A stretch of DNA of 64,000 nt from Escherichia coli (GTDB lineage Bacteria; Pseudomonadota; Gammaproteobacteria; Enterobacterales; Enterobacteriaceae): the NCBI RefSeq assembly GCF_003334355.1, contig NZ_QOWP01000010.1. One strand, 5' to 3'. The notes beneath the pieces are model-generated. The model was not told the origin of the DNA. It did not search any database and worked only from the letters and a program-made list of their open reading frames with translations. Below, piece by piece: positions 49,450 to 59,781 of the stretch (positions within the stretch are counted from its first letter, which is position 1; every line of letters starts with the position of its first letter). The position numbers and the translations under genes were made by a program.

Positions 49450-49482
49450 AAGAAAAAGGGGTTAGCATTTAGCTAACCCCTT
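49450..49482 (-). terminator. intrinsic terminator of serT
   Basis: hairpin ggggttagc-attt-agctaacccc with A5 on the plus strand (U-tract on the minus strand) just 3' of the tRNA. Confidence 0.7.
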
Positions 49483-49490
49483 ATCTTATT

Positions 49491-49578
49491 TGGCGGAAGC
49501 GCAGAGATTCGAACTCTGGAACCCTTTCGGGTCGCCGGTTTTCAAGACCGGTGCCTTCAACCGCTCGGCCACACTTCC
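49491..49578 (-). tRNA. serT: tRNA-Ser (anticodon UGA), long variable arm, encoded CCA end
   Basis: reverse complement reads GGAAGTGTGGCCGAGCGGTTGAAGGCACCGGTCTTGAAAACCGGCGACCCGAAAGGGTTCCAGAGTTCGAATCTCTGCGCTTCCGCCA (88 nt). Confidence 0.93.
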
Positions 49579-50004
49579 GGAATGACGCGCACTATAAACA
49601 TCCCGATGCGGCGTGTAAACCCCTAATTTGTTTGTTTGCCTGAAAAACAGCCAAAAGTGCATTGATAGCGTGAAATAACAGCAGATTGATCATTTCATCA
49701 CCATGAATTCCTTCTCTTTTACTCGTTTAGCAACCGGCTAAACATCCCCACCGCCCGGCCAAAAGAAAAATAGGTCCATTTTTATCGCTAAAAGATAAAT
49801 CCACACAGTTTGTATTGTTTTGTGCAAAAGTTTCACTACGCTTTATTAACAATACTTTCTGGCGACGTGTGCCAGTGCAGAAGGATGAGCTTTCGTTTTC
49901 AGCATCTCACGTGAAGCGATGGTTTGCCTTGCTACAGGGACGTCGCTTGCCGACCATAAGCGCCCGGTGTCCTGCCGGTGTTGCTAGGAGAAGAGACGTG
50001 CGAT

Positions 50005-51123
50005 ATGAATAACGAGGAAACATTTTACCAGGCCATGCGGCGTCAGGGCGTTACCCGGCGCAGCTTTCTCAAATATTGTAGTCTGGCTGCCACGTCGCTG
50101 GGATTAGGCGCGGGAATGGCACCAAAGATTGCCTGGGCGCTGGAGAACAAACCGCGCATTCCGGTGGTATGGATCCACGGTCTGGAATGCACCTGCTGTA
50201 CCGAATCTTTTATCCGCTCCGCTCACCCACTGGCGAAGGACGTCATCCTTTCCCTTATTTCTCTCGATTACGACGATACTTTGATGGCTGCCGCCGGAAA
50301 CCAGGCGGAAGAAGTCTTTGAAGACATCATCACGCAATACAATGGCAAATATATCCTCGCAGTAGAAGGCAATCCGCCGCTGGGCGAGCAGGGGATGTTC
50401 TGTATCAGCAGCGGTCGACCGTTTATTGAGAAACTCAAACGTGCCGCTGCCGGAGCCAGCGCGATTATCGCCTGGGGAACCTGCGCGTCCTGGGGCTGCG
50501 TGCAGGCCGCGCGGCCCAATCCGACGCAGGCAACGCCTATCGACAAAGTCATCACCGACAAACCCATTATCAAAGTACCTGGCTGCCCGCCGATCCCGGA
50601 TGTGATGAGCGCCATCATTACTTACATGGTGACCTTTGATCGCTTGCCAGATGTCGACAGAATGGGCCGTCCACTGATGTTTTATGGTCAGCGTATCCAT
50701 GATAAATGCTATCGCCGCGCTCACTTCGACGCCGGAGAGTTCGTCCAGAGTTGGGATGATGACGCTGCCCGCAAAGGTTACTGCCTGTACAAAATGGGCT
50801 GCAAAGGGCCTACCACCTATAACGCCTGTTCCTCCACACGCTGGAATGATGGCGTTTCTTTTCCAATCCAGTCTGGTCACGGCTGCCTGGGCTGTGCGGA
50901 AAATGGTTTCTGGGATCGCGGTTCGTTCTACAGCCGCGTGGTCGATATTCCGCAAATGGGTACTCATTCCACCGCCGATACCGTCGGTTTAACCGCGCTT
51001 GGCGTGGTGGCAGCGGCTGTTGGTGTGCACGCAGTCGCCAGCGCCGTTGACCAGCGCAGACGTCATAACCAGCAACCTACAGAAACCGAACATCAGCCAG
51101 GCAATGAGGATAAACAGGCATGA
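50005..51123 (+). CDS. hyaA: [NiFe] hydrogenase 1 small subunit HyaA
   Basis: ORF 49978..51123; recognised start [37 protein letters not shown] (Tat signal); Cys clusters for Fe-S centres. Confidence 0.95.
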
Positions 51124-58310: not shown

Positions 58311-58403
58311 ATGTGGTATTTACTTTGGTTCGTCGGCATTTTGTTGATGTGTTCGCTCTCCACCCTTGTGTTGGTATGGCTGGACCCGCGTCTGAAAAGT
58401 TAA
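58311..58403 (+). CDS. appX: small membrane protein AppX (CbdX/YccB), 30 aa
   Basis: not in the ORF track; read from sequence: atgtggtatttactttggttcgtcggc… encodes MWYLLWFVGILLMCSLSTLVLVWLDPRLKS, stop taa; preceded by aaggagcagg RBS, 12 nt after appB. Confidence 0.8.
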   Translation: MWYLLWFVGILLMCSLSTLVLVWLDPRLKS

Positions 58404-58407
58404 CGAA

Positions 58408-58448
58408 CGTAGGCCTGATGCGGCGCATTAGCATCGCATCAGGCAATC
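58408..58448. repeat. REP element between appX and appA
   Basis: gtaggcctgatgcggcgcattagcatcgcatcaggcaatc (REP-type palindrome GCCTGATGCG…CGCATCAGGC). Confidence 0.7.
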
Positions 58449-58482
58449 AATAATGTCAGATATGAAAAGCGGAAACATATCG

Positions 58483-59781
58483 ATGAAAGCGATCTTAATC
58501 CCATTTTTATCTCTTCTGATTCCGTTAACCCCGCAATCTGCATTCGCTCAGAGTGAGCCGGAGCTGAAGCTGGAAAGTGTGGTGATTGTCAGTCGTCATG
58601 GTGTGCGTGCTCCAACCAAGGCCACGCAACTGATGCAGGATGTCACCCCAGACGCATGGCCAACCTGGCCAGTAAAACTGGGTTGGCTGACACCGCGCGG
58701 TGGTGAGCTAATCGCCTATCTCGGACATTACCAACGCCAGCGTCTGGTAGCCGACGGATTGCTGGCGAAAAAGGGCTGCCCGCAGTCTGGTCAGGTCGCG
58801 ATTATTGCTGATGTCGACGAGCGTACCCGTAAAACAGGCGAAGCCTTCGCCGCCGGGCTGGCACCTGACTGTGCAATAACCGTACATACCCAGGCAGATA
58901 CGTCCAGTCCCGATCCGTTATTTAATCCTCTAAAAACTGGCGTTTGCCAACTGGATAACGCGAACGTGACTGACGCGATCCTCAGCAGGGCAGGAGGGTC
59001 AATTGCTGACTTTACCGGGCATCGGCAAACGGCGTTTCGCGAACTGGAACGGGTGCTTAATTTTCCGCAATCAAACTTGTGCCTTAAACGTGAGAAACAG
59101 GACGAAAGCTGTTCATTAACGCAGGCATTACCATCGGAACTCAAGGTGAGCGCCGACAATGTCTCATTAACCGGTGCGGTAAGCCTCGCATCAATGCTGA
59201 CGGAGATATTTCTCCTGCAACAAGCACAGGGAATGCCGGAGCCGGGGTGGGGAAGGATCACCGATTCACACCAGTGGAACACCTTGCTAAGTTTGCATAA
59301 CGCGCAATTTTATTTGCTACAACGCACGCCAGAGGTTGCCCGCAGCCGCGCCACCCCGTTATTAGATTTGATCAAGACAGCGTTGACGCCCCATCCACCG
59401 CAAAAACAGGCGTATGGTGTGACATTACCCACTTCAGTGCTGTTTATCGCCGGACACGATACTAATCTGGCAAATCTCGGCGGCGCACTGGAGCTCAACT
59501 GGACGCTTCCCGGTCAGCCGGATAACACGCCGCCAGGTGGTGAACTGGTGTTTGAACGCTGGCGTCGGCTAAGCGATAACAGCCAGTGGATTCAGGTTTC
59601 GCTGGTCTTCCAGACTTTACAGCAGATGCGTGATAAAACGCCGCTGTCATTAAATACGCCGCCCGGAGAGGTGAAACTGACCCTGGCAGGATGTGAAGAG
59701 CGAAATGCGCAGGGCATGTGTTCGTTGGCAGGTTTTACGCAAATCGTGAATGAAGCACGCATACCGGCGTGCAGTTTGTAA
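58483..59781 (+). CDS. appA: periplasmic acid phosphatase/phytase AppA
   Basis: ORF 58453..59781; recognised start MKAILIPFLSLLIPLTPQSAFA (signal peptide) followed by the histidine acid phosphatase RHGVRAP motif. Confidence 0.95.
   Translation: MKAILIPFLSLLIPLTPQSAFAQSEPELKLESVVIVSRHGVRAPTKATQLMQDVTPDAWPTWPVKLGWLTPRGGELIAYLGHYQRQRLVADGLLAKKGCPQSGQVAIIADVDERTRKTGEAFAAGLAPDCAITVHTQADTSSPDPLFNPLKTGVCQLDNANVTDAILSRAGGSIADFTGHRQTAFRELERVLNFPQSNLCLKREKQDESCSLTQALPSELKVSADNVSLTGAVSLASMLTEIFLLQQAQGMPEPGWGRITDSHQWNTLLSLHNAQFYLLQRTPEVARSRATPLLDLIKTALTPHPPQKQAYGVTLPTSVLFIAGHDTNLANLGGALELNWTLPGQPDNTPPGGELVFERWRRLSDNSQWIQVSLVFQTLQQMRDKTPLSLNTPPGEVKLTLAGCEERNAQGMCSLAGFTQIVNEARIPACSL

Follow-up and report, generated by a model that had tools for sequence, protein, structure and literature searches.

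Hydrogenase 1 of Escherichia coli, encoded by the hya operon, is an O2-tolerant, H2-oxidising [NiFe] hydrogenase (PMC3798270, PMC8177889), and in the inflamed gut E. coli relies in part on cytochrome bd-II for its use of H2 (PMC8177889). According to the literature, hydrogenase 1 would be exported by the twin-arginine translocation (Tat) pathway and would pass electrons from H2 via its cytochrome b subunit to quinone, cytochrome bd-II (appCB-cbdX) would reoxidise the quinol with O2, and the appA product would act as a periplasmic phytase and acid phosphatase. We analysed the genes of these enzymes, assigned here by homology, in a stretch of 64,000 nucleotides (hereafter the window) of E. coli contig NZ_QOWP01000010.1, where they lie beside serT, the gene of tRNA-Ser(UGA). 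The order yccA-serT-hyaABCDEF-appCB-cbdX-appA is very probably the canonical Escherichia chromosomal locus, native and without trace of site-specific integration; comparison between genera suggests deeper relocations. The locus itself is already known, textbook E. coli. What we add is comparative and small, namely a putative inversion of serT and putative relocations of the hya-app cassette; a limited literature search found no prior description of either.

The hyaABCDEF operon (50005..55472, plus strand) corresponds to the hydrogenase 1 operon of E. coli K-12. Its DNA is 99.5% identical to that of K-12-type strains, with allelic differences only, and the order, lengths and overlaps of the genes are those of the RefSeq annotation of other E. 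coli strains. The genes that encode the subunits of cytochrome bd-II oxidase, appC-appB-cbdX (55606..58403, plus strand), together with appA, match the appCB-cbdX-appA (cyx/cbd) genes of E. coli in equivalog-level AppC, AppB and AppA, in the 30-aa cbdX open reading frame (ORF) and in a repetitive extragenic palindromic (REP) sequence before appA, and nothing different was seen. E. coli strain PSS-12 matches the entire 10.3-kb block with 100% identity, and strain WCHEC020031 matches the serT junction region to the same degree. The initial annotation of this region had named its content correctly ([NiFe] hydrogenase 1, cytochrome bd-II oxidase and acid phosphatase), as judged by NCBIfam models and RefSeq annotation, but had miscounted it as an 18-gene block. 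Positions 49450-59781 contain ten genes, counted independently of serT (hyaABCDEF, appC, appB, cbdX and appA), and about 18 is reached only by adding etk-etp-gfc and the genes beyond, which lie outside and on the other strand.

The hya-app block is core to Escherichia. Of 5426 complete E. coli genomes, 5413 (99.8%) carried at least 80% of it, so that the variable presence among strains typical of an island was not observed. Moreover, serT (on the minus strand)-hyaABCDEF-appCB-cbdX-appA was also found in E. albertii, E. whittamii and three further (cryptic) Escherichia lineages, with 90-96% DNA identity. Within the genus, the earlier description of the block as ancestral is correct, and its occurrence at the same place in sister species agrees with the view that it is a native respiratory module and not a recent tRNA-linked island. 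A recent, strain-specific horizontal acquisition (a classical genomic island) would find support only in the proximity of a tRNA and the mildly raised GC content. It is refuted by the presence of the block in nearly all E. coli genomes and in the sister species, and native codon usage and the lack of any mobility genes or repeats among our findings leave it practically no probability.

The orientation of serT bears directly on the question of integration. Elements that target tRNA genes recombine in the 3' part of the gene, and hence end up downstream of its 3' end. In the window, serT (49491..49578; ARAGORN; Rfam RF00005, 57.5 bits) lies on the minus strand, with its 3' end (49491) toward yccA and its 5' end toward hya, which is divergently transcribed. 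An integrated element and its repeat would therefore be expected on the yccA side and not on the hya side; the hya genes lie beyond the 5' end, and not on the 3' side of the tRNA as in a tRNA-targeted island. The statement that tRNA-Ser is followed by the hya and app operons was thus right as to adjacency and wrong as to direction, since hya is upstream of the serT 5' end. The same applies to the proposal to look for a copy of the tRNA 3' end downstream: the search, run over the whole window, returned no second copy, but the flank proposed for it was the wrong one. On both strands, no 29-mer matched the serT 3' end within 3 mismatches, and the longest partial copies in all 64 kb were 12 nt (E ≥ 0.17), at chance level. 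A tblastn search of the 64 kb with one type of serT-prophage tyrosine integrase as the only query gave a best E of 2.0. Both results uphold the earlier statement that neither an integrase nor a direct repeat of the tRNA 3' end is seen. All ORFs of the window were assigned, and its non-coding gaps do not exceed 426 bp.

The claim that composition does not change abruptly held only in part. The GC content rises from 50.3% in the rest of the window to 54.6% in the block, and GC at third codon positions (GC3) is 0.55-0.71 in the block vs ~0.45-0.62 in the neighbours; the step is real yet modest. The synonymous-codon fit, i.e. the likelihood of the synonymous choices under the window's other genes, was -0.96 to -1.17 for the block, within the -0.88 to -1.25 of the neighbours, so the codon-usage scan that had been recommended places the block inside the range of neighbouring native genes. 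The dinucleotide signature distance of the block was likewise inside the range of the rest of the window. Elsewhere in the window, an elfADCG-ycbUVF-like fimbrial cluster (15725-22523), whose gene names we presume from ORF sizes and order, combines the lowest GC (0.42-0.52) with the poorest codon fit, and looks more island-like than hya-app.

The yccA side is where serT receives prophages today. serT is a reported prophage site in O121:H19 Shiga toxin-producing E. coli (STEC) and for the Stx2f phage of E. albertii (PMC8767318, PMC10673567). The attachment core (attB, 49485..49550) consists of the 3' 60 nt of the tRNA and a few bases downstream, and stands unchanged in both att sites (attL, attR) of strain AST262 as well as in the attR of strain OkiPb01707. 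The intrinsic terminator of serT follows at 49456..49482 (minus strand), an 11-bp stem and then a T run, of the native chromosomal type; comparison with attR showed that lysogens carry another, phage-derived hairpin at this position. The window has a single copy of the core with the native terminator, matching the chromosomal arm of attL and lacking the phage-type terminator seen at attR; therefore, attB is empty here. Thus, the core used by the serT-integrating prophages of STEC, enteropathogenic E. coli and E. albertii is intact in the window, which carries no such prophage. yccA, serT and hyaA were contiguous in 4662 of the 5426 complete E. coli genomes and not in the remaining 764, and the break fell at window position 49448 in all four of the latter that were sampled. 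The phage-type attR flank was found in 748 of the 5426 genomes (~14%), including O157:H7, O145:H28, O111 and O45 strains; a further 16 genomes had neither this flank nor the contiguous junction.

In the lysogens inspected (OkiPb01707 and AST262), the prophages sit between yccA and serT, and not on the hya side. OkiPb01707 carries a lambdoid prophage with the effector gene espK, and AST262 a ~41-kb prophage with sheathed-tail genes, whose tyrosine integrase adjoins yccA. The duplicated att region of AST262 corresponds to window positions 49448-49550, with the identical core at ~49485-49550; the copy on the yccA side retains the native terminator, and the intact tRNA gains a phage-borne one. In E. 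albertii NBRC 107761, the type strain (locus L005, 341-546), the phage-type attR flank and not the yccA spacer stands 3' of serT, which indicates a prophage or remnant there. In OkiPb01707 (locus L001, 18156-22049), appC is frameshifted and an IS621 element separates cbdX from appA. The tail-fibre region of this strain's serT prophage, in which espK encodes a type III effector, has an insertion of the IS66 family.

Beyond the genus, the neighbourhood of serT is arranged differently. We compared the yccA neighbourhoods of eight outgroup genomes from seven genera: Salmonella enterica, Enterobacter soli, Klebsiella pneumoniae, Kosakonia, Cronobacter, Pantoea dispersa, a member of the Citrobacter freundii complex and C. 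koseri. The flank yccA-tusE-yccX-rlmI-hspQ-yccU was conserved in 8/8, and synteny stopped exactly at serT. In each of them serT was on the strand opposite to yccA, so oriented that the variable side adjoins its 3' end. The serT unit of the window (49447..49703, minus strand, ~257 bp: terminator, tRNA and ~125 bp upstream), delimited by blastn and by the ARAGORN strands, matched Salmonella, Enterobacter and Klebsiella on the minus strand with 80-86% identity, and yccA matched on the plus strand; i.e. the unit is inverted in Escherichia. The serT-hyaA junction, which the initial annotation proposed to compare across Enterobacteriaceae, occurs at serT in none of the eight non-Escherichia genomes. 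The word "ancestral" consequently fails outside Escherichia, with serT reversed in every outgroup and the hya-appCB-cbdX module at other loci in Salmonella, Citrobacter and Edwardsiella.

Instead of the hya-app block, the orthologous site carries other genes beside serT in all eight outgroups. The 3' flank of serT holds Salmonella pathogenicity island 5 (SPI-5) genes (PipA, PipB, SopB/IpgD, PipD) in Salmonella, type VI secretion system genes in Cronobacter, a bc1-like cluster in the C. freundii complex, a phage remnant in C. koseri, Ecp fimbrial genes in Kosakonia, and transporters in Enterobacter and Klebsiella. In Pantoea, agp-(aldh)-yccJ-wrbA follows serT directly, the agp orthologue having 65% identity, whereas in a K-12-like E. 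coli strain serT and agp are separated by various operons (hya, app, etk-gfc, csp, tor, cbpAM, yccE) that span ~34 kb. This difference suggests that the serT-agp interval is an old accretion hot spot; in terms of the outgroup orientation, hya-app would occupy the ancestral 3' side of serT. A close parallel is SPI-5 of Salmonella enterica, which, like the hya-app block, lies beside serT next to the conserved yccA flank, is genus-specific and has no integrase in the stretch examined. SPI-5 with its type III effectors (SopB/IpgD, PipA, PipB) is at the 3' end of serT, whereas the Escherichia block with its respiratory enzymes is at the 5' end, because serT has flipped. Duplicated serT genes were found in two outgroups. 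Enterobacter soli (locus L049) has two full-length tRNA-Ser(UGA) genes (1011-1098 and 7872-7959) in direct orientation and 6.8 kb apart, which bracket an ATP-binding cassette transporter, an inositol-phosphatase-like gene and a LacI-family regulator, and the segment looks like an island bounded by duplicated tRNAs. In Pantoea dispersa (locus L059, 5563-5777), a tandem duplicate of serT is immediately beside the agp orthologue, whose product has a long Ala/Lys/Gln-rich C-terminal extension (539 aa vs 413 aa in E. coli).

Our tentative reading, to which we give slightly less than an even chance, has two parts. serT, with its promoter and terminator (~257 bp), would have been inverted in the Escherichia ancestor, which moved the landing pad to the yccA flank; and the 8.6-kb hya-appCB-cbdX cassette would be a horizontally exchangeable H2-to-O2 respiratory unit that moved between Hafniaceae and Enterobacteriaceae, and between sites, without recognisable mobile-element machinery. 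The history that we infer is that the block lies in an old hypervariable region, on the 3' side of serT in other genera, that the cassette was relocated or exchanged with its promoter as a unit between enterobacterial lineages, and that the flip of serT in the Escherichia lineage shifted present-day prophage insertion to the yccA side. A degraded tRNA-targeted island would give a different account: hya-app, or all ~34 kb as far as agp, was inserted by an integrase at what was then the 3' end of serT in the Escherichia ancestor, the integrase and att repeat decayed, and serT was inverted later. The 3' end of serT facing this side in 8/8 outgroups, the genus-specific flanks that include SPI-5 and the phage remnant of C. 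koseri, and the function of serT as a phage attB today all agree with it. We nevertheless consider it unlikely: we found no integrase in the window with the one type queried, no repeat and no atypical codon usage of the block, and the serT-agp region is a mosaic of unrelated operons, a better fit to piecemeal accretion than to a single element.

The module in other genera provides a further comparison. hyaABCDEF-appCB-cbdX (9 genes, 8.6 kb, without appA) was intact in Salmonella, Citrobacter and Edwardsiella. In Salmonella arizonae/diarizonae it lies between an aga-like phosphotransferase system cluster with a sulfatase gene and gdh-treA, in Citrobacter werkmanii after the puu cluster, and in Edwardsiella between cadA-like/potE/speF and cfa; in all, the module occurs in four unrelated contexts. 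In Edwardsiella anguillarum (locus L008, 1943-7687), the acid-inducible hya-app cassette adjoins decarboxylase/antiporter acid-resistance genes (cadA-like, potE, speF). That the module is located elsewhere in other genera would also fit a degraded island at serT, but the ~22-kb loci examined contain no tRNA near the modules of Salmonella, Citrobacter and Edwardsiella, and none of the screened flanking ORFs, some of which matched nothing, had an NCBIfam match to an integrase or transposase. About 240 bp upstream of hyaA were kept with the module (61% identity in Salmonella, 63-64% in Citrobacter, 70-71% in Edwardsiella), which sets the left edge of the cassette near window position 49766 and the right edge just after cbdX. 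The latter coincides with a REP-like palindrome (58410..58446), read from the sequence between cbdX and appA: the operon of the other three genera stops at cbdX, with no appA 3' of it, unlike that of E. coli, and across genera appA is linked to the module in Escherichia only.

The module GC3 was 0.63-0.65 in Escherichia, 0.66 in Salmonella, 0.61-0.70 in Citrobacter and 0.78-0.84 in Edwardsiella; it tracks the host, and therefore indicates long residence in each lineage. This composition, fully ameliorated everywhere, and the presence of an intact hya-appCB-cbdX in several genera would fit a serT-hya adjacency ancestral to Enterobacteriaceae, with the module lost or moved in the other genera. 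We regard this as very improbable. hya is beside serT in 0/8 outgroups, all of which share the opposite serT orientation, serT and agp are adjacent in Pantoea, and the many independent relocations and serT flips that would be needed are disfavoured by parsimony.

Exchange of the cassette between lineages is instead suggested by the protein identities. Edwardsiella module proteins are overall 76-96% identical to those of E. coli (HyaA 95-96%, HyaB 93%, HyaE 78-79%, AppB 83-84%). The corresponding values are 92, 90, 73 and 80% for Salmonella, and 90-91, 91-92, 73-77 and 76-78% for Citrobacter. Controls from the Edwardsiella flank are lower (Cfa 64%, SpeF 77%, PotE 70% identity to E. coli). The non-coding hyaA upstream region gives the same ranking of genera as the proteins, with Edwardsiella closest to E. 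coli. An Edwardsiella module that is closer to E. coli than those of Salmonella and Citrobacter, with lower controls, points to an ancient inter-family exchange.

Several points weigh against our reading. In a rooted neighbour-joining tree, the order of the three enterobacterial clades had a bootstrap of 52%, and therefore we claim no direction or number of transfers or relocations. The module identities between E. coli and Salmonella (73-92%) overlap those of vertically inherited neighbours (78-95%). The cross-genus survey was one pattern-based scan, so a genus missing from its list may still carry hya, and the Escherichia survey left out E. fergusonii. The block is also 4 points GC-richer than its surroundings, although this excess relative to the flanks recurs in all hosts and so looks intrinsic to the genes. 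We must also note that a YccX homologue (89% identity), taken as a candidate for E. fergusonii, proved to be from an error-rich E. coli assembly.

The spacer between the 5' end of serT and the ATG of hyaA, estimated before at ~425 bp, measures 426 bp and is the longest non-coding gap in the window. It had been regarded as the upstream region of hyaA, but is a divergent promoter region shared with serT. The alignments suggest a division into three parts: a candidate serT promoter with a conserved upstream block, a variable junction of ~60 bp, and a hya control region of ~240 bp. The candidate serT promoter (TTTACA-17-TATAGT, 49591..49619, minus strand), identified by its match to the consensus in 10/12 positions, is directed away from hya. 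Its block is invariant in the alignment of Escherichia species, and the promoter is conserved, inverted, in Salmonella, Klebsiella and Enterobacter. The spacer at which the serT unit joins the hya module (49704..49765) has indels among Escherichia species and is without a homologue in other genera in our alignments. The hya promoter and 5' leader (49766..50004, plus strand) form the ~240 bp conserved upstream of hyaA in other genera. They include AAATCCACACAGTTTGTATTGTTTT at about 49797-49821, a putative IscR-type site in the hya promoter; the motif lies within the ~240 bp conserved with the module.

Two repeats surround serT. On either side of the terminator, tRNA and core promoter stand the arms of an inverted repeat (12/15; 49443-49457 and 49628-49642), which may have mediated the serT flip; alternatively, they may reflect no more than the A-rich tail of the terminator and the sequence upstream of the promoter. 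A direct repeat (14/16; 49447-49462 and 49760-49775) around serT and the variable spacer was considered as an insertion scar and rejected, because its right copy belongs to the hya upstream region conserved in other genera. Further into that region, E. coli and Edwardsiella share in conserved form the perfect-looking palindrome CTGGCGACGTGTGCCAG (49860-49876) and the long hyaA leader (49900-49975), which are less well conserved in Salmonella and have been deleted in Citrobacter; neither matched an Rfam family. An Rfam scan of positions 44000-64000 matched the tRNA alone, with no small RNA or riboswitch in the 426-bp spacer, and serT was the single tRNA that ARAGORN found in the whole 64 kb. 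A weak FliA chromatin immunoprecipitation (ChIP) signal has been reported within serT (PMC4183435).

The gene assignments of the block are as follows. To the left of serT, yccA (48625..49284, minus strand), the modulator of the FtsH protease, was identified by NCBIfam NF007765 (455.8 bits vs a cut-off of 353) and the RefSeq annotation of near-identical strains; in the synteny comparison, the flank that keeps its gene order across Enterobacteriaceae ends with this gene. All genes of the block are on the plus strand. HyaA (50005-51123) matched only the hydrogenase small-subunit subfamily model TIGR00391 (673.9 bits vs a cut-off of 179.5). Seven proteins exceeded NCBIfam equivalog cut-offs: the large subunit HyaB (51120-52913; NF007550, 1440.9 bits vs 1101), the cytochrome b subunit HyaC (52932-53639), the protease or specific endopeptidase HyaD (53636-54223) and HyaE (54220-54618), for which the set of models was NF007551, NF007616 and NF008563, each exceeded, as well as AppC (55606-57150; NF011609, 1200.4 bits vs 1025), AppB (57162-58298; NF011602, 832.8 bits vs 681) and the periplasmic acid phosphatase/phytase AppA (58483-59781; NF007552, 844.3 bits vs 585). 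AppC and AppB are members of the subunit I/II pair of cytochrome bd-II. hyaF (54615-55472) has no NCBIfam model, and its name comes from the RefSeq annotation of near-identical strains and the Pfam domain HupH_C on the E. coli orthologue. cbdX (appX, 58311-58403), the 30-aa ORF, lacks NCBIfam evidence and is annotated as cbdX in the near-identical WCHEC020031. The overlaps hyaA/B, hyaC/D, hyaD/E and hyaE/F, listed in the initial annotation, are indeed all four formed by ATGA.

HyaA has the Tat motif TRRSFLK, with the TIGR01409 Tat signal at residues 16-45, and the cysteine motifs ECTCC and WGTCASWGC (SWGC). The Tat signal and the extra proximal-cluster cysteines are shared with K-12 hydrogenase 1, an O2-tolerant group 1d [NiFe] hydrogenase. 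From the solved structures of that enzyme, we take the extra cysteines (ECTCC, SWGC) to be the mark of an O2-tolerant proximal [4Fe-3S] cluster.

Some strains differ at the right end of the block. Escherichia sp. MOD1-EC7003 (locus L018, 10370-13875) has lost appC, appB, cbdX and appA, and its hyaF is followed directly by etk. Homology ends just after appA (~59772) in B2-type E. coli (CFT073, ST131, AST262). AST262 has cspH directly after appA, and therefore the segment with the etk-etp-gfc group 4 capsule cluster varies between strains. The appA-etk spacer of the window (59782-59900) is 5 bp shorter than that of WCHEC020031, a strain otherwise identical across the serT junction.

In terms of regulation, the promoters of hyaA and appC are each bound by AppY, which is prophage-encoded, and by YdeO (PMC10057817, PMC4222967), and ArcA and AppY counteract the repression of hya by IscR (PMC3798270, citing Nesbit 2012). 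The hya and app operons would then have separate promoters that are both direct targets of AppY and YdeO, with ArcA and IscR acting additionally on hya. Transcription from the appC promoter by RpoS-containing RNA polymerase has been reported, and an AppY ChIP-seq peak and a YdeO site were located upstream of appC (PMC10057817, PMC4222967). In the window, these sites probably map onto the hyaF-appC spacer (55473..55605, plus strand; 133 bp measured), the presumed appC promoter. If hyaA starts at 1,032,139 in MG1655, the AppY ChIP summits would fall ~149 bp upstream of hyaA (~49856) and ~45 bp upstream of appC (~55561).

In pathogenic E. coli, prophages make heavy use of serT. Which flank of a tRNA gene can carry an integrated element depends on the strand of the gene, and searches for repeats need to be aimed accordingly. 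"Native" is a relative term for the hya-app cassette, which is core to Escherichia and lies at other loci in other genera. The conserved linkage of hya and appCB-cbdX across these putative relocations supports a functional coupling of hydrogenase 1 and cytochrome bd-II.

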